From positions 6,087-70,086 of the forward strand of contig MNCI01002561.1 of NCBI GenBank assembly GCA_015680685.1: a stretch of 64,000 nt of DNA, given 5' to 3'. The position numbers were made by a program, and so were the translations under genes. Positions 1 to 56,417 of the stretch are shown piece by piece. The notes under the pieces are model-generated. The model had not been told where the DNA came from. It did not search any database and saw only the letters and a list, made by a program, of their open reading frames with translations. Source of the stretch: Gnetum montanum (Eukaryota > Plantae > Gnetophyta). Position 1 is the stretch's first letter; each line of letters opens with the position of its first letter.

Positions 1-2189
1 CTCATAGCCACCATATTGGCACATGCCATGAGAACATGTGAATTCTAAATGAAACCAACAATTATGTTGTTTCATTAGACCATAATAGAGAATGCAATCA
101 TGGATAAGAGAAAAGGATTCAAGGGGAGTTGAAACACTAAGCGTTTTAGAAAATTTAAAAATATTTAGGTGAATTCTTCCCTTGTCATATTTGATTTTAT
201 CATAAGGAATGGATGAATTCCACTATTTTTATGTCTCTCCAACTTAGGCATTACACTAGCAAGTTTTCAAGAGTCCATGCTTAATTTGTTGGTTACAATT
301 ACTTGTCATTTTACCACTACATTGTTCTACTCCATTAAATGTCCTAAATGTAACAATAGTAAGTTACTTATGTTCATTTGCTATTGTCATTTATTTAAAT
401 TAAAATATGCATTTCTTATATATGTATTTACATTTCATCCATCATTTTTCATAAATTTTTTCTATTAGTGTTCCAACATTCAAGGCTCTTTAGGAGAGAA
501 AAAGTTTTTTAAAATTTAATGATAATATTTACAAGGAATGAAATCACATCTTTACTATGTATCAAAATGGAACTATAGAATGTTGTTGCATGATTTACTT
601 GATGAGAACTTCAAGTAGAATAATCTTAAGTATTTGATAACTAATATACTTGGTCAACTACAAGATCTCATGCAACATGAAACAAAGATTTGTGTTGATA
701 TTATACTCAATAGACAAATGGGTTTCAAGCATCTCAAGGAAAACGATGTGCTAAGAAAGTCAATCATTAATGGGATGATCACTCTGGAGAAGAAATATGA
801 TCAAATGAAATAATCATATTCATTAAAGCTTGTTCTTATTTAATTTTTCATAGGAAAGGATTTATTTATTGATCATTGTATAGTCCTTAATGTGGAAAAC
901 ATTTGCATTAGGTATTGAATCATAATTGTTTAACATCTTTTAGTAAAAGACTTGATGAGTTTTTTAATATATTAATTAATACTATCTTTTTCTTGCATAT
1001 ATGAAAAATTGATAATTACATGTTCCTAACTCTTCTTGGAAATGTTGAGGTCTCAAAAGTAGAACTAACTCTTAAGCCTTTGGTTCAATCTATATTGCAT
1101 CAACACCTAATGTTTCTTATTTTAGAAGAGACAATGGATTCAATAACCTAGCTAATTAAAGGTATCTTTTGCTATAGACAAAATCCTAAGTTCATGGACC
1201 TAACACTAGTCAAATACTAGAAAAAATTCTTGTTCATGGTGAAATTAGTTGCTTGCTACATAGTATATTTTAAAAATGTAAATTCCAAGGAATCTTTTTT
1301 ATTTTTCAAACATTTATTTGACTTTGTTGAAAGGACAAATGTGATGTTCTCTATGATACTAATTAATACAAAGAAAGAAAACTATCATTTATTTAGAAAT
1401 TTTGTTAAGGACTATAAAAATTTTGTATATAACAACATCTTATTTATGTAATATGAAAGTTATTACTATAAGAGGGAAAACATGTATGTTTTTCTTTACT
1501 ATGTAATATCCATCCTACGTCACCTGGCTAGGGTAGAGTGATGCCTAGGATTGCTAGTGATAACATAATGAAAGCATGATAAACTAAAAGCTAATAGTGC
1601 ATAAACTACTATACATACATACATAGATATATATAGAAATATTATGAAAGGTCAAACTATACAAAAATCCATGCTAAACGAAGGACAAAGCATACATTTG
1701 ATTTTATAAAATTACATGTCTTTACATAAACTACAAATTAGTATTCCTCTCATAGGATGCATAAACATAAACATTATCATATACCTAAGAGTACAATGAT
1801 GGACATATAATATAAATACTCCATAATACTATACAAGGAAATATACATCAACTAATCCCCAAAAGTTTCCCTCTCCTCTTCTATCTCTTGTAGTTCTCAC
1901 CTATATCCCTATAGGTTCCACATGTAACTAAATAAAATTAGTATAAAACTCAGTGAAAAGCCTTTACATTTCCCTTGATAAATGGTCAACAAGTTTTTCA
2001 CTCGAGGAGAGGAATGGGATACAAGGAAACTTTTACTAACTATTAGTCTTTCACATGCTCTAAGTAACACATGTACATATGATATCATGAATATCACTCA
2101 CATAATCATTACTAAAGTAAATAGATCACTATTAAATAGTAATAGAAATAATCATTGTCAAACATAATCAAATATACATCCATTACACT

Positions 2190-2796
2190 TGTGACATCCT
2201 ATCCTTGGATGTCATGGAAAATTTCAAAATATATGATACATTAGACATTATGCATACAAAGAAAATATACCAATGCAAAATATAAGTGATATTCAACATT
2301 ATGTATAAAGGAAATAATAGGAAAAATGTAGAAAAAAGAAAGAAAAAAATGCTTTATTGATACGGAAAAGTGAATCCAGGTCATGCTCTAAGAGTGTTCC
2401 TTGGGGTTTTTTTCCTTTGGCATCTATCCCCTAGAGGCAATCCATCATTGCCACCATGGTTAGGCCTATAACCTGGCCAGAAGGGATGGCCAGTCCACAT
2501 CCTATCCCACTTCACCTAGCTTCCTATGACTTACATATACCAACTCACCACCCCATGACTTGCCTGTACTAGTGTTGCCATTCCCCATGTTTGCATGACC
2601 TCCAACCTTGGGTATAAATTCCTTTGGTCAAATCCCCAAAGGTTACCTCAAGAAACACATTTGTTATTACAACATGCCCTTTCAGGTCTTAATCACAACT
2701 ACCCTTTCTAGTCTTGTTAATATAACAATAAAATTTGGTATGAAGAGAAACCATCTTCATTAGGCAACTACATCATTTTGGAATGGGGGTGTGACA
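2190..2796 (-). repeat. 3' LTR (607 bp) of CCR4 element copy 1
   Basis: TG...CA termini, adjacent PPT, reverse-complement homology to 42790-43361. Confidence 0.87.
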
Positions 2797-3204
2797 ATCT
2801 ACCTCCCTTAGGTTTCATTCGTTCTCAAATGAGTCCACATTCTTTATATTTTTCTAGCTCCAATGCTTTCTTTTATGATCCTGTGCTCTAGTAATTTGAT
2901 TTATCCTTTGAACTTGAAGTTATTTCTTTCTTATTCTGCAAATAAGATATATTTGAGAAGGATTATATGGAAAATTAATTATTACTATCTTGATACCTCA
3001 TTTTCCAAGATAATGATAAGAAGTGATTTAGAGATCTCTGAACTATCAATCACTAGTTCTAACCAGGGTCACACAATGTGCAACTTGTATATGGTTATCC
3101 AAGTGGAGGCAGGGAAAATTCTTTACTCCCAAATTTCATTTCCTTATATATTTTATTAATCTAATTGAAATATAAAATAGAAAATGAATAAAATAATAAA
3201 ATCA

Positions 3205-4472
3205 TCAAATAAAAGTAAGAGTGAGATACTTCTTGACCTTGATCAACCTTATGAACTGATGGAAGTAATTATAATTCTACCATAAGTGGTATGTGATCAG
3301 ATGATCTTGTTTGGGATGGCAAAGCTTGATCTTGATTCTTCTCAACTTGTTCTTTAGAAATCAACTCTAGTAACTTGGTAACTTGAAAGAATTGGGCATC
3401 ATACCAAATATAGTCTAAGGTCTCATTGAAGAATGTTGTTGATTCATCCTCATTAATCATTGCAGAGTAATTTGTAAATTGTGGTTCTTGATGAGTGCTA
3501 TCCATCAACATAATCTATTCTTGAATTCTAAAATATGATTGATCTACTAAAGATTCAAAGTAAGCAAAATATGCACTGACATATGGAATCACATGTTGAA
3601 TTGATGAAAACATCTTTTTCAAGTCAGGTTCATCTTCCAAGGATTTCTTTACAAATCCATATTTTAAGAATTGATAAATGCTACTTCCAACTTTTGAATT
3701 GAAGTATCCACAAAGAATAAATGGAACTAGATTAGTATAACTTAGGAATAACTTCTTCTTGAAACTTTCTTCTATTTTCTTAATCAAGCATGCTTCTTGA
3801 TAAATTCTAACATCTAGATATGTTGGTTTGGTAATTAAATATGTGTTAACCATGCATACACATCTTCCTAATAGATGAACTTTTAGAATCACTGCAAGGC
3901 TATGTGATTTTTATAAAATCTTAATTGTTCTTTCTTGTCCATCTCTTGAAGTTCTAGAATTTCAAAAATCATATTTTCTAAACTCCATTCAAATCTTTGT
4001 ACCAATTCAAATTTGGATTCTTTATAAAAGATCACACAACCATACATGTTGTAATTTCTACAATATGCTAATCTATACAACTCAAAATAACTTTCATAGA
4101 AACTTTTTGCTTATAAATACGACTGTCTCCCATATTTTCTAAATTTGGTTGGAATTGGTATAGAAATTCCCATGCTAAGACTTCTTGTAAGCTCAACATA
4201 TTTGCATCCAAATCTTGTAATTTTTCTAAAATTCATGGGTATCAATATTCATGTCAATCCAAGGCCCATGATGGACATAGAAAATATCATTTCTCACTTA
4301 CTAGGGATCTTGCAACATGTTGTATATTGCAACTTTCATTCTGATTCTTGGATTCTTGTCTAGATCATTTCTCTTCATGAATATCATACTACTTATTGAA
4401 ATAAGATTTTGTGTCTCCATGTTTTTTTGCCTTATGTTTTGATTGTAGGATGGATTAATATATCCTTTTCAT
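3205..4472 (-). pseudogene. Intronless CCR4/nocturnin-family EEP-domain deadenylase pseudogene (~420 codons)
   Basis: Ordered family motifs across broken frames: MKVAIYNML, LCPSWAL, DANMLSLQEV, YGCVIFYKESKF, NTYL, ILCGYFNS (GDFN), SAY, EPQFTNY, TLDYIWY, PSQTRSSDHIPLMVEL. Possible ATG at 4472; end position inferred from copy 2. Confidence 0.88.
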
Positions 4473-5162
4473 GATGGTTGAAGATTGTTCTATTTCTTAA
4501 ACTAATTCTCCAACTAATACATCAACTGATCTTTAACTAATTCATCAACTAATAATCAACTACATCAACTAAATAACTATATTATCTATTTTTATAATTA
4601 TATTATCTAATTTTAGTAATATTTAATGACATCATATAATAATATGTAACTATATTATCTAATTTTACTAATATAAAATTACATTACCTGATTTTTAGTA
4701 ATATTTAACTATATCATTTTTTATGACCTTTCTACCCCCCTCGAGAACACTAACTCTCGCAATGTAACTAATAAGATGCCATAGCAATATTAAGACTATC
4801 TATAAGGGTTATATACTAAATCCTAAAGTCTAAAATGTTGAATTTATAATATCATTGAATTATAGGGTGGCTAGATGATAAATCTGACCTCACCATTGAG
4901 TCTAAAAGGGTGAAAATGTTAGAAATGACTATTTCTATTTTGAAAATGGACATCATATGCTCACGTTGTGTGAAAATTAAACTTTTGAGGATCTCAAGGA
5001 ACCATATTAGGCAAGGATTAAAAAATAATTTTTGGGGTTCCTTCAGATGGATCTGACTCCACCATTAAGCTTAAAAGGTTGAAATCTATAGGAAACGACT
5101 CTTTGTTGACTGAAAATGGTTTCTGAAATAAAAAATTATGGCTTTTGGAGCCTAAGTACTTC

Positions 5163-5240
5163 GGTGTAAAAAAAAAAGACTTCCTCACAGGTCACCCATC
5201 CCAATTCTACTCTAAAGCAAGCACACTTAATTGTGGAAAT
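5163..5240 (-). pseudogene. 5S rRNA-derived fragment (3' ~75 nt containing Pol III box A, IE and box C)
   Basis: Minus strand ttccacaattaagtgtgcttgctttagagtagaattgggatgggtgacctgtgaggaagtc aligns without gaps to plant 5S CTCCGCAGTTAAGCGTGCTTGGGCGAGAGTAGTACTAGGATGGGTGACCTCCTGGGAAGTC (recalled consensus); box C GGATGGGTGACC is exact. Confidence 0.85.
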
Positions 5241-5439
5241 TTATCTTTGTTGCTACCACTATGCCAAAATCTAATTTTGAAAACTAGTTTTGCAAGTTCT
5301 TAATTTAAACTAATAGTTTAATGGCAAAAATTTGAATTTTTAATTAATTGATAGAAATTTCAAAATTTTCCATTAGTTGATGAATAATTGAAAATTTTCC
5401 ATCATATAATAAAGAATTTGATGGTTTTTAGCTACATTG

Positions 5440-5670
5440 GAGACATTTAGTGGTGGTGCTAGAGGTAGTGATGGGTGGCACAAGAGGCAATGATGGGTAG
5501 CACAGAAGGCAGTGATGGGTGGCACAAGAGGTAGTGATGGATGGCACTTGAAGCAATGATGGGTAGCATTGGAGGCAGTGATGGGTAGCATAGCAGGTAG
5601 TGATGGGCAACATAGGAGGTGGTGATGAGTGGTGCAAGAGATAGTGATGGAAGGTGCAGAAGGCAATGAT
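5440..5670. repeat. 22-bp minisatellite, ~10 degenerate copies
   Basis: Unit agaggtagtgatgggtggcaca recurs at 5461, 5483, 5505, 5527 and onward. Confidence 0.85.
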
Positions 5671-7352
5671 TGACAATGTTATAGGTAGAGATGGGTAGTG
5701 TGTGTGGTAGGTAATGAAAAATTTGGCAAGGGTTTCAATGGTAGGTGAGGGTTTGTGCAGGCATGGATGATGTAACACCAACCAAGGGTTTCATCACAGT
5801 GGTAAGTAGCGATGGTAGAGCAAGGCATGGCATGTGGCGTGCTATCACAAGGAGTGGATAGTGGCTATCAGAAGGCTAGGATGTGGCATGTAGCAGTGGC
5901 TTTTTTAGTAGGCCATGCAATTTTTGTGAGGGCCTGCATGGCTAGTGCAAGGGTCTACATGTCTTTTTTCAGGACTTTCATGGCTAGTGTAGCGGCTTGT
6001 AGTTGACAATGGAGTGGTTAGTAAGTGGCGGCAACCACAGAGGCAAGGATGACCCTGTTGTAGTAGCATGTGGATCCGTGGTTCAATGGTAGCATGTCTG
6101 ACTCTAGATCAAAAGGTTGCATGTTTGGAAATAGGGGTGGCATGGGTGGCAAGGCTAATGGTGGTAGCAGAGGCACATTGGCATGGGATTAGGCAAGTAG
6201 TGGCATGGTGGGTGGGTAGGGGGTCATGGGTGTGGGCTTTTTTTTTTTGTTTTTTAGGGCCCTTTGGCTTGGCCCAAGGTCCAACCCTCTAGAATCATAG
6301 CCTACTAGTGGCCTGGTTGTTGCTTGCTAGCAGCCTGGCCATGGCTGGTAGCAAACCTGGCCATGGTTGGCCATGGTTGGCTATTGTTGGTCATAGGCCT
6401 AGCTGCAGTCCAATATTTTTTTAATATTATATATATATATATATATAATTTTTTATTTTATTTTATTTTCTAAGTGTTTAAATAAAAATCTTGGGGGCTC
6501 AGGTTTGAACGTGAGACTTCCTGGTTTTTTTTTCTAAACTTTTTATTATCATTTTATTTCACCTTGCCTCACTGGTTGACTTGTTGTTTTGGCTTATGAC
6601 AAGGTAAGGGTTTGGTATGGGTAAAAAATAATTCTAGATTGATTCCTAACCCTAAAATTTTGACAATTTTTTTTTGAAATAATAATTTAATAATTTAATA
6701 TTATTTTAATGCATGCATAATGAAAAACTTCAAATGTCAATATCTCCCAAATTGTAAGTTTGATTGAGACAAAGTTTGTATCTTTGGAATCATCCCAACA
6801 AGAACTACATGTTGGACATAGTTTTAGGATTGAAAAACGAAGTTGAATTTTTTAAAATTAAAAGGAGAAAATTAGCCTATTTTGTTGAACTAAAATTTCT
6901 AGGCTGACATTTGGTAACTTGGAATCTTCTAGATTTCTTGGATAGTAAATTTCAACAAAACAAGATCAATTTATGTCATGGTTACTAACTTTATTAAAAT
7001 ATATTTAACAAAAACCCTAATCAATTAATAATTATAGTATTAAGATGGATAAGAGTTACCTGGATTGATGTATCATCATCTTACCAACATCTTTTGTAAT
7101 TGATGAATTTTGATGAGGTGTGATCAAATCTTCATCGATTAATGATATTCATGAGAGAAATTTTGTTGGTTGGTAGGATCTAGATGCCTAATTCATTGTT
7201 TGTGAAGTCAATGGAAATAGATATTCTGACTTGCATCATAAATATAAGGTACATCTAGTGATGATCAATGGCATTCGATGTGTTGTGGCTTCAAGGTTCA
7301 TCATTAAGTTCATGCTATAGTTTGGCCCATTGTTTTGAATGGTCCTTAGGTC

Positions 7353-7625
7353 NNNNNNNNNNNNNNNNNNNNNNNNNNNNNNNNNNNNNNNNNNNNNNNN
7401 NNNNNNNNNNNNNNNNNNNNNNNNNNNNNNNNNNNNNNNNNNNNNNNNNNNNNNNNNNNNNNNNNNNNNNNNNNNNNNNNNNNNNNNNNNNNNNNNNNNN
7501 NNNNNNNNNNNNNNNNNNNNNNNNNNNNNNNNNNNNNNNNNNNNNNNNNNNNNNNNNNNNNNNNNNNNNNNNNNNNNNNNNNNNNNNNNNNNNNNNNNNN
7601 NNNNNNNNNNNNNNNNNNNNNNNNN
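7353..7625. other. Assembly gap (273 N)
   Basis: N run; hides the PBS and most of the 5' LTR of copy 1. Confidence 1.
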
Positions 7626-7707
7626 TTGTTAAGATAACAATAACATTTGTTATGAAGAGACACCATCTTCATTAGGCAACCGCATCATTGGGAATGGGGA
7701 TGTGACA
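7626..7707 (-). repeat. Visible end of the 5' LTR of CCR4 element copy 1 (rest hidden in the assembly gap)
   Basis: Close match to 2714-2796. Confidence 0.85.
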
Positions 7708-9844
7708 ACACCACATCACATACATCTCCACTATCATTTTCATGCCATCATACCCACTCCATGTCATCAAAGAACACATGTACCACATAATCATAGGTCA
7801 ATCATAAATTATATTATTCATGCTATGACTCATAAACCGATACCATCATTTACAGCTTACCCATGTGGTCACTAGAATATCAACACTTCATGTACCATGT
7901 GAAACATTATCATGAGTACTTATGAATAATCATTTCCTATAGGTAGTTTATTAGTATTTTTTCTCCAACTAGTACTATGTTCTGTCAACCTGTGATCCAC
8001 AATTACTAACCTTCTAGAGGACTCACTATAGGGATGAACACACCTATGTCATGTACTAGCTATAGGGACGAACACACCTATGCTCTCTCACTCTCAGGAT
8101 GAGGCCCGAGATAGGATCCTCATTAATGCATCATAGTGTGGGTCAATTCAAAACTACCTCTAGGATGCCTCAGCACCAACTAGTCCATACCTTTATGGTA
8201 GCACCACTTGTCAAGGATTTCTACAAGTATCATTGAGAACACATGTACAACACTAGGCTAGCATAAGCCAACACATGTTGCAAGCACAACACATCAAAAA
8301 TAAACATAATATGACCACATATATCCACATCTGATAGTCAAATTTGTTTCATGAGAACAATACCACAACTTGGTAAAACAAAATATTGCACCACAACCAT
8401 AATTAAACTACATATTGTTCTGTAAAAATAACCACTATTACAACCTCTAAGATGATATATGTCAAAAGAAAAAAAAAATTCCATGATTATAACGTACAAC
8501 TCAAGTTAATCCCAATGACACTTATTTCAACTCAATTGGACCCCTAGAAGCAAAGTTATGTGTGTTTAAAGTTTAATTAAATGACATAATAAATAATAAT
8601 ATTTAGTTATAGTGAGTGATAATTAAAACTCCTAGAAACTCCTACACAATGATAGGTCCCTAAAATATAATACTCAAACCATACCAATCTTATTGACATC
8701 ATGTCTAATATTCCACAAGCGCACATCATATCATACATTGCATATTTATGATAAATAATTTGCACCCAAAATTATAAAATTTCAGGAAATCTACAAAACA
8801 ATACATTCAAACTCAATCCTTTAACTATCTACCCTACATGCCCATATCACATGATCATATACACTTATTTGATATAAAAATATTGAAAAAAAGGCAAGGA
8901 CAACCTACCAATTAAAATTGTTGTAATAGAAAGTCTGAAACACACATGAAATCTTTAAAAATCTGACAAAACTCCATTTCACTCCAAATAAGTTCTGCAT
9001 TCACTTAGATACAACTATAATAATCCCAAATCCAACTTTAGTAAAAATAAAAATCCATTCACAAAGCTTAAAATTCAAGAAAAGAGTAGAATTAAAAAAT
9101 GAAAGAAAACTAAAGAAACGATGAAGAAGAAGCTCCAATATGATTTCTTTTATACAAGAACATAAAAAAATGAAATCAACTGTTATGGATAAGAAAAAGA
9201 TGGTGGAATAATAAGAAAAATATGTTTTATTTTTAAACAAAAATTATTCTTGAAGCATATACTTTAAAATAAAAAGAAAGATTCCTTTCCCATGTGTATT
9301 TCATGTCACATGCAAAAAACTATTTTTATTTTTAATTTTAAAAAAAAAACTAAATATTTTTTAAGTATATTTCTTTTATTCCTCTTCAATTAATACCTTG
9401 TATTTCAAACATGTATAAAAAACACACTTGGACTTCAAATCAAAATTTGTTTGAACTTATGATATCCATATCAAATGCTCTTCACATGTACATGCTAAAA
9501 TTACATATAAGTTTCACACAATATAGGGCTATAATTTAAATGCATAAATAATGAAATCACACATAAAGCATAAGTACATATAAAATAGGTGCTCTTGTAT
9601 CCCAATGCAACGTCCTTGTGAACCACAACACCTATTTAACACATCACATAGGGCTAGTGTATATAATCATGTTAGTTAAGCATGTAAAGAAATCATAATC
9701 ATAAAATACAGACTAAAGCATCATAATCTATAAAGTGTGATCATAACAAACTAACTCATCCCTAATAATCCATCGAGACTAGTTATGTAATGTATAAATA
9801 ATAATCATACTTTCATGGCAAAGGTCTCTAGAAGGGATATAACA

Positions 9845-30674: not shown

Positions 30675-30686
30675 GCTTTGATACCA
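30675..30686 (-). promoter_or_regulatory. Primer binding site (tRNA-iMet type)
   Basis: gctttgatacca is the reverse complement of TGGTATCAAAGC (canonical TGGTATCAGAGC), 3 nt from the LTR. Confidence 0.88.
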
Positions 30687-30689
30687 CTA

Positions 30690-31052
30690 TGTAACACTGC
30701 ACCTTACTACACCTAGCTAGGGTAGAGGGATGTTTAGGATTGCAAGTAATAATACAATGGAAGTATGATACACTGAAAGCTAATAGTACATAAACCACTA
30801 TATATATATATATATTATGGAAGGTCATACTACACAAAAATCCATGCTAAACCAAGGACTAAGCATACATTTCATTTCATAAAATTACATGTCTTTACAT
30901 AAATTGAAAATCTTTACTGCTCTCCCAAGATGCATAAACATGAACAACATCATATAACTAAGAGTATAGTGTGGGCCATAAAAATATGAATAGTTCACAA
31001 TATTATGCAAGGATATATACATAACCAATCCTTGAAAATTTTCCTCTTCTCT

Positions 31053-31088
<36 letters not shown>

Positions 31089-33542
31089 GGCTTGCTTACA
31101 GTACTGTAGTTTCCACCTATAACTAAATAAAGTTAGTATAAAACTAACTAAGAAGCCTTTATACTTTTCCTACTAGATGATCAACAAGTGCTACCCTAGA
31201 GAGGAGAAATGGGATACAAGGCAACCTATGCCAACTATCAGTCTTACACATGCTCTAAGCAACACATGTACATACAATATTATATGTAAGACTAGCATAA
31301 TCATTACTAAAGTAAATAGATGGCTATCACATAGTAATAGACATCATCATTGATAGACATAATCAAATATAAATCCATGATAACACACCACATACATCTT
31401 CACTATCATATTCATGCCATCATACCCACTTCGTATCATCAAACAACATATGTACCACATAATCCTAGGTCAATCATAAGATATATTATCCATGGTATGA
31501 TTCATAAATCGATACCACCATATACACCTTACCCATATGGTCACTAGCATATCCAAATTTAGCATGTGAAACATTGTTGTGACTGCTCATAAATAGTCAT
31601 TGCCTATAGGTATTTTATTCATATTTTATTTATCTAATTGGTGATATGGTCTATCAACCCATGATCTACAACCACTAGCCTTTCGAAGGACTGGCTATAG
31701 GGACAATGACACCTATGCCAAGTACCAGATCTAGGGATGAACACACCTATGCTCTTTCACTCTCATAATAAGAGATGAAATAGTAGCTTCACTAATGCAT
31801 CATAGTGGGGGTTAGTCCACAACGACCTCTAGGATTCCTCATCATCAAGCAACCCACATCCTTATGCTAGCATCACCCATCAATGGGAGCTACAAGTATC
31901 GTTATGAAGACATGTACAATTCTAGGCTAGCTTAATCCAACACATTTTGCAAGCATAACACATCCAAAGCAAACCTTTCCATCATCACATACATCCACAT
32001 CTAACAGTCACATTCGTTTCATTAAAATAATACCAAAACTTAGCAAAAAAAAAAAATTTGCATCATGACCATACTTCTTAAACTACATATAGTTTCATAA
32101 AAATGACCACTTTTGCAACCTCTAAGATGTTATTTGCCAAAATATAAAAAAACTTTCATGATTAAAAGATATGTCTCAAGATAATCCCAATGGCATTAAT
32201 TCACCTCAATTGGACTCTTGGAAGTAAAGTTATCTGCATTTAAAATTTAATTAATAAAATAATAAATAATAATATTTAGTTACAACAATATTTAATTGAA
32301 ACTCCTATAAGCTCCCTCACAATGATAGCTCCTTAAAATATAATATTCCAACCATGCCAGTCTCATCAACATTACATATAATATTCCATGAGTTCACATC
32401 ATATTATACATTACATATTTATTAATAAAAAATTTGCAACCAAAATCATAAAATTATAGGAAATATGCAAAACAATACATCCAAAATCAATCTTTTAACT
32501 GTCTACACCACATGTTCATATCACATGATCATGTACACTAATCTAGCACAAAAATACAAAAAAAATTTAAAGACAACCCACTAATTAAAATTGTTATAGT
32601 AGAAAGTCTAAAACAAGCATGAAATCTTTAAAAATATAGAAAACTCCATTTTTCTCCAAATAAGTTTTTCACCCATGTAGATATTACCATAGCAATTCTA
32701 AATCCAAGTTCAAAGCAAAGAAAAATATAGCCACAAAGCCTAAAATTTAGAAAAAGAGTAGAAAAAAAAAGTAAGAAAAACAAAAGAAACATCAAATAAG
32801 AAGTTCCAATATAGTTTCTATTCATATGAGCACACAACAAGAAAAAAAAGAAACCCAAATGTTATGGGTAGGAAAAAGATGGTGGTGTTTTCTTTTGGTG
32901 GTGGAATAATAAAAAAAACATGTTCATTCATTTGTTTTCCTTAAAAATTGTGCTCAAACCATATACTTTGAAATAAAAAGAAAGTCTTCTTTCTCACATG
33001 TATTGCACATCATGTGCAAAAAATTATTTTTACTTTTAATTTTTTTAAGAAAAAAACTAAACATTTTTAGAAATTTATTTCTTTTATTCCTCTTCAATTA
33101 ATACCTTACACTTCAAACATGCATAACAAACACACTAAGACTCCAAATCAAAATTTGTTTGACCTTATGAGATCCATATCAAATGCTCTTCAAATTCACG
33201 TGCTAAAATTACATCCAAGCATTGCACAATATAGTGCTACAATTTAATTGCATATATACCAAAATCACACATAAAGCATAAATACATACCCAATATGTGC
33301 TCTTGTATACCAATCTAATGTCCTTGCCAGTCACATCACCTATATAATACATCATATAGGGCTAGTATACATAATCATGTTAGTTAAGTATGTAAAGGCA
33401 TCATAATCATGCTAAAACATCACAACTTATAAAACACAATCATAACAAACTAACTTGTCTTTGGTAATACACTGAGACTAGACACATAATGTATAAATCT
33501 AATTGTACTATCATATCCAAGGTCTCTAGAGAGGATGTAATA
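30690..33542 (-). repeat. 5' LTR of the chromovirus element (~2.85 kb)
   Basis: Direct repeat of the split left LTR; starts tgtaacac, ends ggatgtaata; bordered by the PBS and the TSD. Confidence 0.9.
31054..31087. repeat. (CT)n microsatellite inside the 5' LTR
   Basis: Direct observation; the other LTR has only a short CT-rich stretch near 1870. Confidence 0.95.
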
Positions 33543-36420: not shown

Positions 36421-37684
36421 CAAGCACAATGCCAGAAGCATTATAAAAAAGTATAGTGATTCCTATTTTTTAACAGACTTTAGACCATATCTTCCAAATT
36501 TATAGTATTCAATATGCACAATAGGATGTAATCATAGTTGATGAAAAAGATGATAAAATTCTAGATGAGGATAAGAAAAACCTCATACAAGCTAAAAAAT
36601 ATGATCTTAATAATCATGGTGATAACTAATTTCTTAAATAGTTATTAATATTGATTGTAATTCTATTAGGGATTAATTTACTTTTGAGAAACTATTAAGT
36701 TTCCCTAAATAGCTTGTAAATATAAATGTATATTTTTATTTTGAAATAAAAAAATATATTATCTTCTTGGAAATCTACTAACCTTAAATTTTATTCTTAA
36801 TTGTTGGCAATAGTTGATGATCACGAAACATTTCACATTCAATAATGTATGTAAAATATGTTAAATTATCAAACTAATCCTATTTAAAGCAATTGACATT
36901 TCTTTCAAATGATCATGGATAAGGATTTACATGATCATCACATACTTATCTAATGGTGCCATCACAAAATTATTTAACTTCTAACCTATAATGATAATTA
37001 AATATATATTGCTGCTAACACTATTTAAGGTAATCAAAATTTCTTCTAAATAATCATGAATAAGAATTTACATGATCATCACATACTTGTCTTATGGTAA
37101 AATTTGAAAATTATTTAACTTGTAATCAATAATGATAATTAAATATATATTGATTTGTAGAGCTTTATTTAAACATATAATAATTAATTGATACATGATT
37201 ACATGTATAAAGATATACTAAATTTATTAAAGTATAATAAAAAAATCTACAGATCTTTCAAAAATTTCATTAATTAATTATAACTTCAAGGATAAATAAT
37301 GTTCATTACAACATGATAGAAGATACTGACTAGAAGATTATGAGTAACTACTTTTTATAATAACATACTAATGTTAGAAAACAGATTTAAGATTCATGGT
37401 GTAATGTCTCCATTCCCAAATGGTGCTATTGCATAATGAATATGATGCCTCTTCATAACAAGTGTTATCATTATCGTAACAAGACTCAAAATGGCATGTT
37501 GTAAATAAGACCTGAAACGGTGCATTGTAATCATGGACATGTCTCTCAAGGTGACCTTTGGGGGTTTTACCTAAGGCATTTATACCCAAGCTTAGAGGTC
37601 ATGCTAGCATGGAGTTGTATTTTCTGTGATTATTGCTGAAAGTTCAATTTTTGTATGGATTATTTCTGCTAGCATGCTATTGTG

Positions 37685-38110
37685 ATTTCTGCAATATGCT
37701 AATTTGTATGGATTAAAAGAAGAACTTTAACAAGAACCTTTTTGCTTATAAATACATATGTATCTCATCTTTCCCAAGTCTAGATAGAATTGGGATAGAA
37801 ATTTCCATTGCAAGACTTCTTGTAGGAATAAGACATCAACATCCAAATCTTGTAACTCTACTAAGATGTGTGGGTATCGATACCCATGCTAGTCCAAGGC
37901 TCATGATGGACATAGCAAATGTTGTTTCTCACTTGTTAGGAATCTTGTAAGCATGGTGTATGTTGCAACTTTTATTCCTATTCTAGGATTTTCTTTGGGG
38001 TCATTTTGATTCATGGGTATCATACACCTTGTCAAAATGAGATTTTGAGGCTCCATGTTGTTCTACCATGTGTTTTAATTGCAAAAAAAATTGATATACA
38101 TCTTCTTGAC
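37685..38110 (-). pseudogene. CCR4-like 5' fragment in an inverted segment
   Basis: Colinear with 4050-4475 and a reverse-complement match to 41230-41540. Confidence 0.8.
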
Positions 38111-38739
38111 CATTTGAAGATAGTTTTGTTTCATATCTTCTTGACCATTTGAAGATAGTTTTATTTCATCAACTGATCCTCCAACTAATTTTGGTAATAT
38201 TTAACTACATTATCTAATTATTAAAAACCTTTCTACCCCATTTAAGACACTGACTCCAATAGTGTAACTAATGACTGTCTAGGATTTAGTGACATTAAGG
38301 CTATCTACAAAGGTTAAGCACTAAATCGTAACATTGCAAAAGGTTAAAATCATTAGTTCCAACATTTAAATTGTTAGGCATGATTAGTTGCCCTAAGTTG
38401 TCAACTTTTAAGGTACATTTGATGATGTGATCAAATTATTGGATGCTTGGATGATAAATCCTACCTCATCATTAAGTTTAGAAGGGTGAAATATGTTGGA
38501 AATGATTATTCATATGTTAGAAAAAAACATTGTATGCTTGCATTATGCTAAAATTAAGCTTTTGAGCATCTTAAGGGACTATGTTGAAAAAGGTATAAAA
38601 ACTAATTTTTGAGATTTCATGGAACATATTTGACTTCACGATTCTATCCAAAAGGTTGAAATCTATAGGAAAAAACTCTTTGTTCATAGAAAGAGACTTA
38701 CAAAATCAAAAGTTATGGGTTTTGAGGTCTAGAAGTTTT

Positions 38740-38815
38740 GGCATGAAAAATGAGACATCTTGAGAGGTCATCCATTCCAATACTACTCCACGATGAGTGT
38801 GCTTATTTGCAAAAT
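38740..38815 (-). pseudogene. Second 5S rRNA-derived fragment
   Basis: gaggtcatccattccaatactactc...gtgcttatttgc matches the reverse complement of the 5S box C/IE/box A region; same context as 5163-5240. Confidence 0.7.
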
Positions 38816-39384
38816 ATTTATCTTATTCCTACCAGCATGCCAATTTTATTTTTCTTAAAAAATTTTCACTTTTCTAATTTTAAACTAACATTCTTCTAAT
38901 GAAAATTTTAAATTTTCTGTTGGTTGATAGAAAAATCAGAATTCTTTGATAGTTGATGAAAACATTTTTCTATCATTCAGGCTAGGGAAATTACAGTAGT
39001 AAGAACATCAATAGCACTATGGGGGTACTAGAGCAATGAATTGGATGAGCCAAAAGAGTGCACTAGTGGGCAAGGTGCACCAAGAGAGGACAACGGCAGT
39101 GGACAATACTGGTACGCTAGGGAAGCTTGACAATGGTGATGATGATGACATGCTAAGAGAGTGCTTTATAGGGGCCAACAGAGCCTAGGTAGCCTAGTTG
39201 GCCCTTATTAGGGCTTTTGAAACTCCTTGTAGGGCCTATGTAGTCTAGGTAATGCCTACATGGCACTCACAAGGGCCTATGTAGCCCAGGCAGGGCTTGA
39301 ATGATCCACACAAGGGCTAGCATGGCACAAGCAACTAGCATAGCATAAGTGGCCAACATGTTGTTAGTGATGAGGTTTTTAGCA

Positions 39385-39780
39385 ACACCTGAGGAGGTGA
39401 TAATTTTTGGCATTAGTGGTATCTAAGGTCCACTAGAGGGTATGATGATCATTGCTACTAGTGATGTCCACAATGCACTAGAGGGGACAACAATCCTTGG
39501 TGTTAGTAGTGTCGATGGTGCATCAGAGGGCGCTATGATCCTTGATGCTAGCAATGTTCCCAATGCATTAGAGGAGGTGAAGATCCTTGATGTTCATTAA
39601 AGGGAATGATGATTCCTAGCACCATTGATGTCCACAAAGCACTAAAATGGGTAGTGATTCTTGGTGCCTACGGTGTTTGTGGAGTGCTAGAGAGGGTAGC
39701 GATTCTTGGTGTCAATGATGTTTGTGAAGTGTTGGAGTGGGCAAAAATTCCTGACATCAATGATATCCGTAAATCACCAT
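39385..39780. repeat. 45-bp degenerate tandem repeat
   Basis: ca(c/t)tagaggg-like starts at 39431, 39476, 39521 and 39566, with further units to ~39780. Confidence 0.7.
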
Positions 39781-41229
39781 GGATGACAAAAAATTAATGG
39801 ATTTTTAGCACTAGCAATGACAACTATGGTAGCAATGGTAGCATAGGTGATGGTGAAATCAACCCACACAATAGGTGATGAGAAATTCAAAGGCAACACA
39901 AATAGTTGATGAGGGTTTTGATGAATTTCATGGTGGACTTTATGGACAAGGGTATTTTGTGGGTAATAGTGGTACAAAGAATGTTATCAGGTAAGGGTTT
40001 CATTGAGGCTAGGTAGAAAGCACTAGTTGGCATCATAGTGGTGATAGCAATGGCCTTTTTTGGTATAGCAATGGTAGGAGGTGAAGCTTAGGTGTAGCCA
40101 TAGGCACGACAATAGGGTAGTCATTGATGGGCTTACATCGCCTCATGGAAGGCATTGCAAGCCTTTATAGTGGCTACACTGGCCCTTGTAGGGTCATTCA
40201 ATAGGAGGAAATGAGGTTAGGAACAAGGCAAGGTTTTGTTAGCAAAGGCACAACAATAGTTAAGGTGCAGTAATGGTGGTAGGTGTCAAGGTTTGAGAGG
40301 TGCAGTGTGGGGTCAGGCTACCCCAATATGGGCCAGCATGACCCCCATGCAGGGCTATGTGGCCCTTGATGGGTCAGTGTGACTCTAGGTACAGTGACAC
40401 GACCTAGAATTTTAAAATTTCATTATTATTATTATTATTATTATGAAGGTAGCGGTTGATGTAGCAACATTGGTTGGAGTAGGTAGAGTGGTGACAAGTA
40501 GATGGTAATCAATGGTGCTTGAGGTTTTATGTAGTGTGTGAAGTAGTAGAGGTGGTGGTGATGGTAGTGCATGTACCAATAGGTGAGAAAGGGAAAATTA
40601 CTTGCTATAAGAACTAAATGAGTAGTACTATCTAAGACATTTTCAATGATACTAATTTCATCACAATCCGACTTATGGTTTGGGTGATACAATGTTTCTT
40701 GGGTTGCATGTAATTTAAAATTAAAAATTCTTTTTTATTTTATTTTTAAAATTTAAATTTAATTTTATAAAAAAAATAAGGGTGAGAGAGCATCAGGTCA
40801 TGGGTTCAAACCTAAGCCTCCCTCCTGATTTAGGAAAAAGCATTTTAATTTGACTTATTAAAAAACAAATCCTAACCCTAAGGGAAGGCTACAACCCAAT
40901 GGTCAGCCTGCATTGCCCCTTTTGGTGCACCATGGACACCACCAGCACTAGAAATTGCTGCCCCTTCTAGTGCCCCATGTACACTGCCTACATTGGAAAT
41001 CATCACCACCTCCAACACTATTAAAATTGCTATCCTCACACCACTAAACAAGGCTACATGAATCCTAGCAAAGGTAGCATAGGCCCTGCTTGGGCCATGT
41101 TGACCCTAATAAGGTCCATGTGAGCCCAAGATAAAATAAAATAGTGAGAGGGATGCACAAGCCTAGTGCCATAATTTTCCACTAGCATTGTAGTTCACCA
41201 CTACCTACCACAACATTGGCTAGTGAAAA

Positions 41230-42382
41230 ATCCAAGAATGAGAATTGAAGTTGTAATATATAACATGCTTAAAAGATCACTAGCGAGTAAGAAATAATAT
41301 CTACTATGTCCACCATAGACCTTGGACTAGCATGAGTATTGATACCCATGCATCATAGTAGCATTAAAAGATCTAGATGCTAATGTCTTATGCCTACAAG
41401 AACTCTTACCATGGAAATTTCTATACCAATTCCAACTAGACTTAGGAATGATGGGATATAGAGAAATTTATAAGTAACAAGGTTATTATGGAAGTTCTTC
41501 TTTGAGCCATATAAATTACTGTATTGCAAAAATCATAAGATGGATGTTTGAATAATTTTTTTATAAAGAATCCAAGTTTTAATTAGTACAAAGATGTGAA
41601 TGGAGCTTAGAGGATATGATTTTTGAAATTCTACAACTTCAAGTGATGGGAAAGAAAGAATGACCAAGATTTCAAAAAGGTCACATAACTTTGGTAGTGA
41701 TACTAAAAATCTAGTTATCTAAAATATATGTATGTATGGTTAATACACATTTAATTGTCAAATCAACATGTCCAAATGTTAGATTATGTTAGGGAGCATA
41801 TGTGATTAAGCAAATAAAGGAATGTTTGAAGAATAAGTTATTCCTAAGATATACTAATCTAGTTCCATTTGTTCTTTGTGGAGACTTCAATGTGAAAGTT
41901 GGAAGTAATGTTTATTAATTCTTAGAATATGGATGTATAAAAGAATCTTTGGAAGATGAACTCGATTTGAAGAAGATGCTTTCATGAATTCAACATATAA
42001 TTTCATTGGCTAGTGCATATTTTGCTTCTTCAAATCTTCTATAGATAAATCAGATCCCAGAATTTAGGAACAAATGATGTTGATGGATAGTACTCATTAA
42101 GAACCATAGTTTACCAATCACTCTACTATGATTAATGAGGATGGATCAAAAACATTCTTCTTTAAGACTCTAGATTATATTTGGTATGATGTCAAATTAT
42201 TCCAAGTTACCAAGTTACTAGAGTTAATTTCTAAAGAAGAAGTGAAGAAAAATCAACATCAAGACCTTCCATCTCAAATAAGACCATCTAATCATATACT
42301 TATGGCAGAATTACAATTACTTCCATCAATTCATAGGGTTGATCAAATCAGAAAGTATCCCATCATTACTTTTTATTTATAA
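41230..42382 (+). pseudogene. Intronless CCR4/nocturnin-family deadenylase pseudogene, copy 2
   Basis: Motifs DANVLCLQEL, NTHL, VLCGDFNV (41872-41895), TLDYIWY and RPSNHIL; colinear with copy 1. Confidence 0.88.
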
Positions 42383-42789
42383 TCTTATTATTTTCTTCAT
42401 TTTTTAATTTACATTTTAATTAGATAAGTAAAATTTCTATGATAATGCAAGTTATAAATAAGAATTTACCCTAACTTCACTTGTATAACAAGATATGAGT
42501 TGCACTTTGTGTGACCTTGGTTAGGACTAGTGATTGGTGGCTGGTAGATCTCTAATTCACCTCTTGTCATTATCATAGAAAATGAGGTAAGTATTAATAA
42601 ATTAATATTTAAATTCTCATATATTCTTGTCACATATATTTTTTTTGCGGAATAAGCAAGAAACAATTTCAAGTTTAAAGGAGAAATCAAATTATTGGAG
42701 CATAAAATCATAAAAGAAGTACTAGAGCTAGAAAATGAATAGTGAATGTGGACTTGTTTGAGGACAAATGAAACCTAAGGGGGGTAGAT

Positions 42790-43361
42790 TGTAATGTCCC
42801 CATTTATAAATGGTGCTAGTACACAATGAATATGGTGCCTCTTCCAAATAGATGTTATTGTTATTGTAACAAGACCCAAAAGGGTGTGTTGTAATTAAAA
42901 CTGGAAAGGGTGCATTGTAATAATAGGCATGTTTCTTGAGGTGATCTTTGGAAGTTTGACTGAAGGCATTTATACTTGGACTTAGAGGTTATGCTAGCAT
43001 GGATTTTTGGATCCAGTAAAGGTTAGTAATAGGAGGTGGATGTAGTGGGATAAGAAGTGGACTAGCCATCCCTTCTAGCTAGTTATAGGCCTAACCGTGG
43101 TGGTAGTGCTGGATTGCCTCTATGGGAAAGATGTCGAAGGAAGAAAACCCCAAGGAACACTCTCATAGCATGATCCAAATACACTATTCCACATCAATAA
43201 AGCATTATTTCCTATTTTCTTATGCATTTTCCCTATTATTTCCTTTACACATAATGTCGAATGTCACATATATTTGATGTTTCTTACACTATTGTCTTAT
43301 GACTAATATCTAATATAACATATATTTGATGTTTTATATGACATATGGGAGTGATGTCACA
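42790..43361 (+). repeat. 3' LTR of CCR4 element copy 2
   Basis: TGTAA...GTCACA after the PPT; homologous to the reverse complement of 2190-2796. Confidence 0.87.
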
Positions 43362-46300
43362 CATGATTTTACTAAATTTAACATGCTTAGAATGAAAATG
43401 TTTTGAAAATAATGAAAACCTTTCTACATGATAAAGAAGGAAAATTCATTTGATCTTCTACATATGGATCTTATTAGGATAACTCTCACTATTTCAATAG
43501 GAGAAATAAATTATTTCATAGTCATAGTAGATAACTATTCAAGATATACTTGGACTTACAAATTGAAGAAAAAGAATGAAGCCATAAAATAATTTGAAAC
43601 TTTCCATAAACTAATTAAAATTTCCATTAATATTAAGATTAAAACCATCAGATCAAATAAAGAAGGTGAATTCATAAACAAATAATTTGATAAGCTATAT
43701 AAAATAAATGGTATCTTTGATAAAATCACAAGTGTATATAGCCCACAATCAAACATAGTAGCTGAAAGAAAGAATAAAAAAGTACAAGACATGGTAATAT
43801 GCTTACTAAAGCATGCTCAATGCCTAACCAATATTAGAGTATGGCCATCATAGTTATTTGTTACATTTCTAATTGAATCATCATCAAAATAAATGAAGAT
43901 AGATATCTATATGAAGTTCTATATAATATAATTCCTAACTTGATTCATATGAGAATATTTGAATGTCAATGCTATGTAAAGGCCCTAAAACAATTCATTG
44001 AAAAACTTGAAGATAGAGGAAAGAAATGGATCTTTCTTAGTTATGATTCTCACACCAGTGGATATAGGTACTACAACCTAATGAAACAAAAACGACATGT
44101 TTCAAGTGATGTTATAAAAAGGTTATTGATTGTAAGTGGTTGTACAAAACAAAGAAAGATAAAAAGGAGAGTCACAACACATAAAGCAAGACTTGTGGGA
44201 AAAGGGTTCAAACAAACAAAACACATTGACTATGAAAAAATGTTTACATCAATGGCCAGATTTAAAACCATCAATCTCATTCTCTCCATAGCAATACATG
44301 AAGATCTAAAGGTTCAATAAATATATGTCAACTCAACATTTCTAAATGGATACATAAAAGAAGAATTATACATCTAAAGTAATTCCATGAAGCAAAATAA
44401 TTTCTTGGTTATTATGACTTCATAATAAATAACCTAATAAAATTTATATTTTTTAAAATCTTATAAATTTATCTATAATTTGAAAATAATAAGTACTACA
44501 AAAGATATCTATAAGATAAGGCTATGTTAAGTTTTTGATAATAAAAAATCATGGTAATTTTAGTAGTGTGATTTGAGAGATAACAACTTAAATGTTGCTG
44601 AGTTTCTGATATGAAAATTTTAACTCTTTCAAAGATATTAACATTTAAATAAATCTATAATCACATCAAATTATTGTAAGATGAGAGAAAAATAATCTAA
44701 TCATTTTCCATTATTCATTCTAGAAAAATTTGAGGATTGAAAAATTATACCAAATCTCAAAGCTAATGTTTGTCAATCCACAATAGATATTATGATGAAA
44801 TTTTGTTTAGTCATAACCACATATTCTAGCTTTCAAATAAATATATAATAACTAAAAAAATATTATGAAATGACTAAGATATGATTAAAATAGTGAATTT
44901 TCCACAATTTTGACTATTCAACTTATAATATTGAGTAAATAATGATTAATGATGTTGATGAATTGATGAATTTCTAAAATATTTATAAATTGATGATGAA
45001 ATAGAAAAACTATTGTTGAAATTGCATTGATGATTTCTCAATAAAAATTTCCAAGACATGCCTATATATATATGTGTGTGTGTGTGTGACAAGTAAGACA
45101 AAGTTTACTAAAGATAACACAATATCGCTTGAATGATAAAATAACCCTAAAAGCTATATATATGGATTGGGGCCAAAATAAAACTATAGCTACTCATCAA
45201 TCCAAAAATTTTCTATATTTTATTAAAATAAAATCTTGTTAAATAAAAATAATAAATTATTTTCTTTTACCAAAAAAAAATCAACAATCCCTCCTTAGAG
45301 TGGAAGGCAATCTTCATTCTTCCTCTTTACTTTCTTCTTTCTTTTTCATGCTCTAAATTCTTATACATTCATTAAGAAACTTGATCCTTCCTTCACTTAT
45401 TGCTTAATGAAATAGTATTTGATGTCAATATGTTTGGACATTTTGTGATGCACATAGTCTTGGGATAGTTGGATTGCTATAGTATGGTCACAATACAAAT
45501 TTTTAGGAAGATCAACTTTAAATTCTAAGTGTAAGAGAAGTTTATTTAGTTAGATTATGTGTTGGAGGCATTTAGCCATGGTAATAAATTTTGCTTCACA
45601 AATAGGTAAGCTGATGAATGATAGTTTCTTTAATTTCCAATATATAGGATTTTTTCTATGCACAAGGAGAGCTCATAATGTGGATTTTGTATCATCATTG
45701 ACTCCTACCCAATCAAAATCTAAATATACATGAAGCTTATTATCTACTTTATTGAATTGAATCCCAAAGATGTAGGTTTCTTTTATATACTTTAGAAGAT
45801 GTAAAACTACTTGCAAGTGAGATTTTCTTATGGTCTAATGTGGTAGAGAAACTAAAATGATCCAATCATGGTTCTATACATGATTGCATCTATGAGAGGA
45901 GTCTTATCGTTGCTAGTTAACTTTAAATTGTATGGTAAAGGACTATTGACTACCTTCTTATTTTATAGATTGAATTTTTTAATGATAGAATTTGCATATT
46001 TGATTTGCTGAATATTCATTGTCTTCTCATTTTGGTTCACTTTAATTCCTAGGAAGTATTTAAGTTCTTCAATATTGTTCATTTTAAATTCAATTTTCAT
46101 GTCATTCTTAAAATCTTCTACTATCCTTTTATTGGTGGTAAAAAAGATAATATCTCTACATATAGTGATATGATGATGAGTTCATCTCTTTCCTTCTTCA
46201 AATATAGTATTGGTTAAAACATGCAATTTCGATAATTTTTTCAAGTGATATAGTTATTAATTCTCTAAACCATGCCCTAGGTACTTACTCTAGGTCATAT

Positions 46301-47263
46301 AGAGATTTTTTGAGTTTTTACACTTTGCTTTCTTTTCCTTTAATAACATAACCTTCAATTTGGTAGATGTATACTTCATCTTTGATGTATGTATTTAGAA
46401 ATGCTATGTTGGCACCTATTTCTTAAATATTTAGATCTTTATGTGTTGCTATGAAAAGAGTGAGCTTGATGCTTTCAAATCTAGTCATCAGTGCAAATAT
46501 TTCTTTATAGTCAATGTATTTTCTTGAATCCTTTTATTACAATTCTTGCTTTAGATGTTGTGACTTCTCCTTTCTTACTATGCTTTGTTTTATATAAACA
46601 CTTATAATCAATAATGATCTTGTCTTTTCATTTTTCCACTAATTTCAATGTGTTATTTCATAGGATGATATTGTACTCTTTATCCATGGTTTTTTTTTCC
46701 AAACTTTTAATTTCATGGCTTCATTGACATTTGTTGGTTTACTTGAGACTGTTAAATATGTCATATTTGTAATATTGTGAGATCTTGTGATTCTTCATTT
46801 AAAATATGTATCCAACATTTTAGTGCAAGGATGGTCTCTTTGAATCTAATTTTTTTTCTATTTAAAAAAATGACTTGTACTAAACTTTGTCTCATCAAAT
46901 ATAACATCTCTTAAAATGTGTCATTTCTAATTTATTAGGTTGTAGCACTTGTATCCATTGGTGTGTGAATCATAACCAAGAAAGATACATTTCTTTCCTT
47001 TATATTCAAGTTTTTGAATGAATTATTTTAGGATCTTTTCATCGTAATGACACTCAAATATTCTCATGTGACTTACATTTAGAATTTTTTCATATAGAAC
47101 TTCATATGCAGATTATTATTTATTATTTTTTATGATGATTCGATTAGAAATGTAGGAAGTAGCTATGATGGCTGTAATTCAATATTGGTTAGGTAATGAG
47201 GCACTCTTTTGTGAGCATTCTGTTATGTCTTGTATTTTTTATTTATTTTAGCTATTTAGATCT

Positions 47264-56200: not shown

Positions 56201-56417
56201 TAATTCTAACTTTGGGAGGGAGAAAAGGAAAGAGTTTGGCTAAGGGAATAACTATCGATTGCAAAACCAAAGGTGCCTTCCTCTTGTTTATAGGCAAGAA
56301 GGAATGTCCCAATATTAGGTATTCGACATCGCATGGTAGGCTTCAATATCGTGGATGTGATATCGCAGACCCGATATCGTGGATCCAATATCACAGGTGC
56401 GATATCGTGGTTCATCA
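47264..56417 (-). mobile_element. Athila-type Ty3/Gypsy LTR retrotransposon
   Basis: LTRs 47264-48751 and 55556-56417 (TGATG...CATCA); perfect TSD GATCT; PBS tggcatccttgctgggga (55537-55554, cf. TGGCGCCGTTGCCGGGGA); PPT at 48752-48764. Confidence 0.9.
49250..54700 (-). pseudogene. Athila gag-pol remnant
   Basis: gag IPQFKG..PQNHLQEFHDVC; protease DPGS...LDLCFSVNLI (52346-53026); RT WVSPLV..KDHFPLPFFDQVL (51512-51856); RH YIHTDHSAIRFL; INT FDIWGIDFM and LWEGSY. Confidence 0.92.

Follow-up and report, generated by a model that had tools for sequence, protein, structure and literature searches.

At this locus a plant retroelement may have turned a messenger RNA (mRNA)-decay enzyme of its host to its own use, or may have carried a captured host gene as a passenger. 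The window, a 64,000-nucleotide stretch of Gnetum montanum DNA (contig MNCI01002561.1, assembly GCA_015680685.1), contains two long terminal repeat (LTR) retroelements, element 1 (2190-7707, minus strand) and element 2 (37400-43361, plus strand). Both bear a CCR4a/b-type gene with an endonuclease/exonuclease/phosphatase (EEP) domain. The locus has LTR, polypurine tract (PPT) and target-duplication anatomy, three copies of the gene with lesions that are not shared, a conserved catalytic core and read depth that extends across the family. Comparison of these sequences suggests an old, high-copy, helper-dependent LTR family on which a working, poly(A)-trimming CCR4-type enzyme was kept by selection, the three copies in the window being broken. 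The probability of this interpretation is put at about one half.

The CCR4-type gene and its reading frame

Copies 1 and 2 of the gene are 80% identical, and both lie in the sense orientation and end about 430 bp before the PPT, in agreement with the original prediction, which had placed the same EEP gene upstream of the PPT in both elements. The open reading frame of ~420 codons that it described was not recovered, as the gene comprises about 400 codons and is broken by stops and frameshifts in every copy. Stops occupy 6 of 388 codons in copy 1, 15 of 365 in copy 2 and 3 of 130 in copy 3, where random expectation is about 32 per 370, and the three frameshifts found in each of copies 1 and 2 are all at different places. 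At one position every copy has a stop, though not the same codon throughout, and no identical stop is common to the three. At one stop of copy 1, about 80% of the read depth in run X1 lacks that stop. Because the lesions are not common to the copies, the ancestral frame, which the original prediction had proposed to check, appears open. The ancestor of the family is likely to have carried an open CCR4-type frame of ~400 codons.

The catalytic motifs YN, LQE, NTH, GDFN, LDY and SDH, of which all but NTH had been named in the original prediction as marks of the CCR4/nocturnin family (LQEV and LDYI in full), can each be found undamaged in one copy or another. Copies 1 and 2 both fall short of the full set, with GYFN in copy 1 and LQEL and SNH in copy 2. 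Matches of gene pieces in PDB were yeast CCR4 (E 8e-10), Angel2 (1e-10), PDE12, nocturnin and CNOT6/6L, which supported the CCR4-type assignment. The apurinic-type endonuclease of long interspersed nuclear elements was rejected as a candidate; it was absent from the PDB matches with E of 1 or less, which numbered 11 and 12, and no reverse transcriptase (RT) was found in the internal regions (Pfam, 18 of 18 frames). The suggested search with the Exo_endo_phos hidden Markov model gave a match to copy 2 (E 0.009), but below the cut-off. Canonical plant CCR4a/b proteins have an N-terminal zf-C6H2 domain (PF15801), whereas no match to it was found upstream of the element gene. A protein word-index search with the C-terminal piece returned 30 candidates, none of them significant, and a single-sequence fold prediction of the gene product (pLDDT, predicted local distance difference test, 35) was not used.

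Structure and insertion of the two elements

Element 1 is a true insertion, because its flanks continue as a single unbroken repeat at 30686-33540. Segmental duplication of the two elements, which shared flanks would have indicated, was ruled out, since the flanks of element 1 are absent at element 2 and the empty site is present. The claim of two separate insertions holds for element 1; element 2 proved to be rearranged, with the third fragment that had been counted in the 64-kb window lying inverted inside it. The expected TG...CA ends and the PPT preceding the 3' LTR are present in both elements. Pairs of ~600-bp LTRs had also been described; the 3' LTRs measure 607 and 572 bp, but the 5' LTRs are stubs of only 82 and 217 bp. 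Similarly, each element has flanks that agree as a 5-bp target duplication, but at four of the five bases (ACACT/ACACC and CATGG/CATGA; chance about 0.024 in either case).

In element 1, 525 bp of the 5' LTR are missing, and the size of the assembly gap is considered unreliable because its 273 N fall short of the missing LTR part. Element 2 spans 5,962 bp with no gap, and its primer-binding site has been lost through the rearrangement. Its LTR pair has a Kimura two-parameter (K2P) distance of 0.245, no smaller than the distances to the LTRs of element 1 (0.21-0.32), so the pairing is drawn solely from the termini and the target duplication. Within 37617-41220, the inverted duplicate of the 5' third of the gene differs from copy 2 by K2P 0.246, the same as the LTR pair of element 2. 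This inverted copy could be what deletions left of a third, nested element, or could have arisen when strands were switched during insertion.

Copy number and expression

Eighteen DNA runs under six organism labels contain 0.05-0.47 of the sampled words of element 1, and two of these runs were mapped to 1900-8200 at a minimum identity of 80%. The contigs mapping to this interval numbered 44,515 and 49,702 and were mostly less than 95% alike. Mean depth in the two runs was 32,510 and 53,584 over the gene, 47,604 and 69,453 over the LTR, and 48 and 99 over the G-rich middle. The LTR:gene ratios were 1.46 and 1.30, and the gene was about 540-670 times as deep as the copy-specific stretch. Because the depth of the gene about equals that of the LTR, the gene appears to travel with the family. 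The family likely numbers hundreds to thousands of members, the majority of which would carry the gene, although read-mapping depth is no copy number. The empty site and the family-wide depth uphold the view of a mobile family, present in many copies, whose cargo moved along with it, as against a one-off retrocopy. In RNA run X22, 709 of 12.6 million reads fell on the element; none was 99% alike, and 623 of the 709 were under 90% alike. The RNA reads gave no sign of an abundant young copy.

Origin and relatives of the gene

A profile search of 1.84 billion protein representatives gave 571 matches at E 0.001, 36 at 1e-10 and 0 at 1e-30 (best 2.7e-21), and the best matches fall together in a divergent clade allied to plant CCR4a/b. 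The first tree included 94 of 152 candidate proteins, those with a near-complete EEP domain, and later trees used 40 and 32 hand-picked reference rows. Under a mixture model and without PDE12, the element gene, with a stem of 2.18 changes per column, was placed on the green-plant side of CCR4 (support 93/98, not starred). The best tree that includes PDE12 set it near the root beside PDE12 (82/74, not starred) on a stem of 1.21; placement with plants was not rejected in that setting (approximately unbiased test, p-AU 0.26-0.28). The motifs LASAY, EPxFTN, LLELI and ALPSxxxSSDHI are shared with plant CCR4a/b and an intronless group, and not with PDE12, and BLAST scores were 118-150 bits for plant CCR4 versus 61 for PDE12. 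Derivation of the gene from plant CCR4a/b is likely on these comparisons. Its branch is several times longer than any sampled host CCR4 line, which suggests long evolution on the element, and this long stem is the main reason for preferring such a history. Before the private changes of the copies, the guanine-cytosine (GC) content of the element gene was about 0.34, versus 0.44 in the intronless group.

Metagenome contigs (L001-L003 and L004-L006) contain two units in circular permutation, about 10.2 and 9.9 kb long, which are likely to be tandem arrays or circles. Each unit bears a plant-type CCR4 gene that is intact and free of introns (442 and 541 codons between stops) and that belongs to the divergent clade, and no NCBI-named genome member of this clade was among the top matches. 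In L003, the last 153 bp of the CCR4 gene are repeated. L003 and L006 were rejected as LTR-borne CCR4 genes, their repeats being without TG...CA ends and target duplications. The window gave no blastn match to 80 metagenome loci.

Selection and decay

Relative to a CCR4 reference set, either copy matched 51 of 62 near-invariant columns, 45 of 111 intermediate columns and 14 of 100 variable columns. The best overall identity between the element gene and the compared proteins was about 30%. Retention of the near-invariant columns despite such low identity shows long past purifying selection. Private changes amount to 0.10-0.11 per site in each of the three copies, a pattern that would correspond to a star-like burst from one ancestor followed by decay after insertion.

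With codons at frameshifts and stops masked, the transition-corrected ratio of nonsynonymous to synonymous change (dN/dS) was 0.81 between copies 1 and 2 (95% interval 0.58-1.15) and 0.82 and 1.23 for the other pairs, with all intervals including 1. Without correction for transitions, the values were 0.51, 0.54 and 0.88. Between copies, invariant columns were kept in 43 of 62 cases and other columns in 143 of 211 (p=0.88), and the second positions of codons are a little less divergent (p=0.02). On these values the divergence between the copies appears neutral.

Missing gag and pol and the 5S-rRNA-derived core

Within the sequenced internal parts of elements 1 and 2, Pfam gave no gag or pol domain in any of the 18 frames searched. 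The single Pfam match there was a weak zinc-finger (E 0.21), and no Chromo match was obtained; the PPT end presumably resembles that of Tekay elements. The claim that neither element shows gag or pol is accordingly valid for the sequenced parts and limited to them, because the gap hides the 5' end of element 1 and element 2 is rearranged. The family was likely dependent on the gag and pol of another element.

A core derived from 5S ribosomal RNA (rRNA) is newly recognised in this family. It is located about 750 bp upstream of the gene and about 2.4 kb from the 3' LTR, and its two copies are 72% alike over 88 columns, with a C-box that agrees with the canonical C-box at 9 of 10 positions. In run X19, up to 2,877 RNA reads fell on 5178-5232 and continued into 5S letters, and their overhang includes, in reverse complement, a published primer for 5S rDNA. 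True 5S arrays inflate the DNA depth at this bin. The Rfam 5S model gave 12.6 bits on copy 1, which is not significant and far below the cut-off, and no match on copy 3 or on the window as a whole; no tRNA gene was found. The core would recruit RNA polymerase III factors and is unlikely to transcribe the gene because a T run lies behind it.

Explanations for the gene on the element

Under the interpretation that selection acted on the element, a CCR4 gene would have been captured into element RNA during reverse transcription and the element mobilised by an unseen helper. Long evolution of the gene on the element would have preceded a burst from one ancestor, and decay would have followed insertion. 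The missing N-terminal domain is presumably the link of plant CCR4 to its complex. The enzyme may have acted outside the CCR4-NOT complex, in trans on host or helper RNAs and not on its own RNA, but this is doubtful. Deadenylation by CCR4 has recently been described as a plant retrotransposon defence (PMC12501189; 10.1101/2023.03.23.533991; 10.1101/2024.08.23.608929). In Arabidopsis, CCR4a trims the tail of RNA from the LTR retrotransposon Evade and represses its transposition (PMC12501189; 10.1101/2023.03.23.533991), and CCR4 promotes RDR6-dependent small interfering RNAs (10.1101/2024.08.23.608929). Because the host enzyme suppresses retrotransposons in this way, trimming of the element's own RNA would probably be harmful, which weakly favours action in trans. 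The complete scenario is a tentative one, less probable than its negation: a helper-dependent element would have captured host CCR4, its sole protein, after long evolution on the element, would be a free-standing deadenylase directed against host or helper RNA, and it would have reached thousands of copies with a 5S core beside the gene.

Several results weigh against a selected, helper-dependent element. No autonomous partner with matching LTR ends lies inside the 64-kb window, and the gap in element 1 (7353-7625) is unclosed. The copy number is read from mapping depth, as stated above. RNA over the gene in X22 reached a depth of up to 4.3 per direction, that is, few reads. The copies appear to have decayed neutrally, because dN/dS is ~0.81 and invariant columns are no better kept than others, and this speaks against present function. 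With no selection detectable between copies, the conserved core could predate capture and have been shaped in the host donor; on the copy data, earlier selection would be attributable to the element or to the donor alike. The position of the gene is unstable once PDE12 is included. The amino-acid composition was discarded as a proof that the gene had long resided on the element, since the AT-rich make-up is largely reproduced by 12% biased decay. The lack of introns, which the original prediction had set against the normally intron-containing host genes, is weakened as a sign of capture by the intact intronless relatives outside LTRs (L003 and L006); because such genes exist without LTR ends, it is no proof that the element captured a spliced mRNA.

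The neutral divergence among copies would also be expected if the gene was passive cargo, that is, a fast-evolving intronless host CCR4 paralog captured shortly before the burst and multiplied with no benefit to the element, with a core conserved by host selection. This is possible, if somewhat unlikely. Intact intronless CCR4 paralogs do give the best scores to the element gene, at about 30% identity, and capture of gene fragments by transposable elements is very common in giant gymnosperm genomes (PMC13477047). However, no donor-like protein was found in the protein searches, and the intronless group has branches far shorter than the stem of the element gene (1.2-2.2). The lower GC content before private changes and the carriage of a whole EEP domain at roughly LTR-level depth also argue against late passive capture. 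The gene could instead belong to an autonomous Ty3-type lineage as an extra open reading frame (ORF) situated after pol and before the 3' LTR, with the copies in the window being deletion derivatives or with pol lying in the gap. Element 1 has a tandem array, as do the regions between pol and the 3' LTR in Retand elements (PMC11963269), the gap size is unreliable, and orchids offer a precedent (PMC9289625). Nevertheless, such a lineage is improbable, given that no gag or pol domain was detected in the 18 frames examined and that element 2 is gapless over its whole length. The 273-N estimate would be unlikely to hide at least 5 kb, and one contig row weakly joins 7322 to LTR sequence. A substrate other than poly(A) would suit the PDB scores, which for Angel2, PDE12 and nocturnin are close to that of CCR4, and the tree in which the element stands beside PDE12. 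The substrate would then be 2',3'-cyclic phosphate (Angel), 2'-5' oligoadenylate (PDE12) or NADP(H) (nocturnin). The four lineage motifs fit plant CCR4a/b and the intronless group and not PDE12, and the BLAST scores favour plant CCR4, which makes this alternative very improbable.

Comparison with known elements

Extra ORFs of LTR elements have been reviewed (PMC7264820; PMC11963269), and Retand elements typically have a long stretch from pol to the 3' LTR that holds tandem arrays and extra ORFs (PMC11963269). A close likeness is found in the Ty3/Gypsy AlkB elements of orchids, a plant LTR lineage in which a host-derived RNA-modifying enzyme forms an extra ORF with its catalytic residues kept (PMC9289625). 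Those elements are about 25 kb long, were found via RT, and encode an N6-methyladenosine (m6A) demethylase shown to be active, whereas the CCR4 family has EEP cargo, no pol has been seen in it, and all three copies are broken. In bdelloid rotifers, ORF3 of LTR elements is a 3'-5' exonuclease-type gene of the DEDDy group, its activity is undemonstrated, and it has no clear within-genome departure from neutrality (PMC5408684). The rotifer elements differ in having a DEDDy and not an EEP fold, an animal host, gag and pol, and scarce full-length copies. As in maize Bs1 and other cases of gene transduction by LTR elements, host coding sequence lies in sense between the LTRs (PMC7264820). Transduced ORFs occur in one or few copies (PMC7264820), whereas the CCR4 gene is found at about LTR depth and is ~30% identical to the best proteins.

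Plant CCR4a/b deadenylases share the EEP catalytic motifs and the lineage motifs of the element gene, which falls on the green-plant side of the tree built without PDE12. The element gene differs from them in the unrecognised zf-C6H2, a very long branch, its location in an LTR element and its broken frame. Cassandra elements, which are terminal-repeat retrotransposons in miniature, are non-autonomous LTR elements with a 5S core from A-box to C-box of about 70 bp (10.1101/2023.07.14.548913), and that report states that they are not found in gymnosperms. The present family is not Cassandra, because its 5S core, which would at most act as the Cassandra core does, is internal and outside the LTR; the element is also at least 5.5 kb long and has a protein gene. 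The main text and two supplements of the gymnosperm study contain no mention of 'CCR4', while two gene ontology rows name deadenylation-dependent decay (PMC13477047). No description of a CCR4-bearing LTR family was found in the literature searched, with most subscription papers outside its coverage. The family is apparently an undescribed variant of cargo-bearing LTR elements and is dead in the window.

Feature coordinates and the rest of the window

Table 1. Coordinates of the features of elements 1 and 2 in the window.
Feature	Position	Strand	Remark
Left target-site duplication, element 1 (ACACT)	2185..2189	.	4/5 vs 7708-7712; empty site ~31378-31384
3' LTR, element 1, TG...CA	2190..2796	-	607 bp; 78-81% to 3' LTR of element 2
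PPT, element 1	2797..2809	-	
CCR4a/b-type EEP gene, copy 1	3239..4426	-	~400 codons with 6 stops and 3 frameshifts; N-terminal zinc-finger part not recognised
Core derived from 5S rRNA (A-box to C-box), then T run	5178..5237	-	element sense; recurs about 38754-38813 (copy 3)
Tandem array of 22-bp units (5461-5650) and G-rich stretch specific to the copy (about 5700-6540)	5461..6541	-	read depth 27-153 vs tens of thousands elsewhere
5' internal region found family-wide	6542..7352	-	no Pfam domain; depth 4,000-23,000
Assembly gap, 273 N	7353..7625	.	covers most of 5' LTR, primer-binding site and anything else
5' LTR stub, element 1	7626..7707	-	82 bp; 90% to 3' LTR over 82 columns
Right target-site duplication, element 1 (ACACC)	7708..7712	.	
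Empty-site paralog of the repeat hosting element 1	30686..33540	+	1498-2183 = 30686-31378; 7712-9842 = 31384-33540
Left target-site duplication, element 2 (CATGG)	37395..37399	.	4/5 vs 43362-43366
First 217 bp of 5' LTR, element 2	37400..37616	+	79.7% to 42790-43006
Third copy, inverted: EEP gene, 5' third only (37670-38062); region upstream of it; 5S-like core (about 38754-38813)	37617..38960	-	may reach weakly to about 40830
CCR4a/b-type EEP gene, copy 2, without first 20-odd codons	41238..42346	+	15 stops, 3 frameshifts; Pfam Exo_endo_phos E 0.009, below cut-off
PPT, element 2	42777..42789	+	
3' LTR, element 2, TG...CA	42790..43361	+	572 bp
Right target-site duplication, element 2 (CATGA)	43362..43366	.	

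The window is AT-rich and full of decayed remnants of LTR elements. A separate LTR element occupies 47264-56363 and has remnants of RT and RNase H on the minus strand; its LTRs, about 810 bp long and 88% identical, have no match to those of the CCR4 family. Copia-type fragments that recur in direct and in inverted orientation lie at 43426-47254 and 56550-61504 (SH3, and RVT_2 at 43877-44320), including an inverted pair at 58574-59444 and 60649-61504. A 141-bp tandem duplication is located just left of element 2, at 36880-37152.

Significance

Domain screens based on RT would miss a CCR4 family without pol. The many copies make it testable whether the gene was selected on the element or carried as passive cargo. 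If it was passive cargo, the locus would represent a very large amplification of a host pseudogene and be of modest interest. If selection on the element is the true explanation, the family would be a direct case of an element that took over an RNA-decay weapon of its host.

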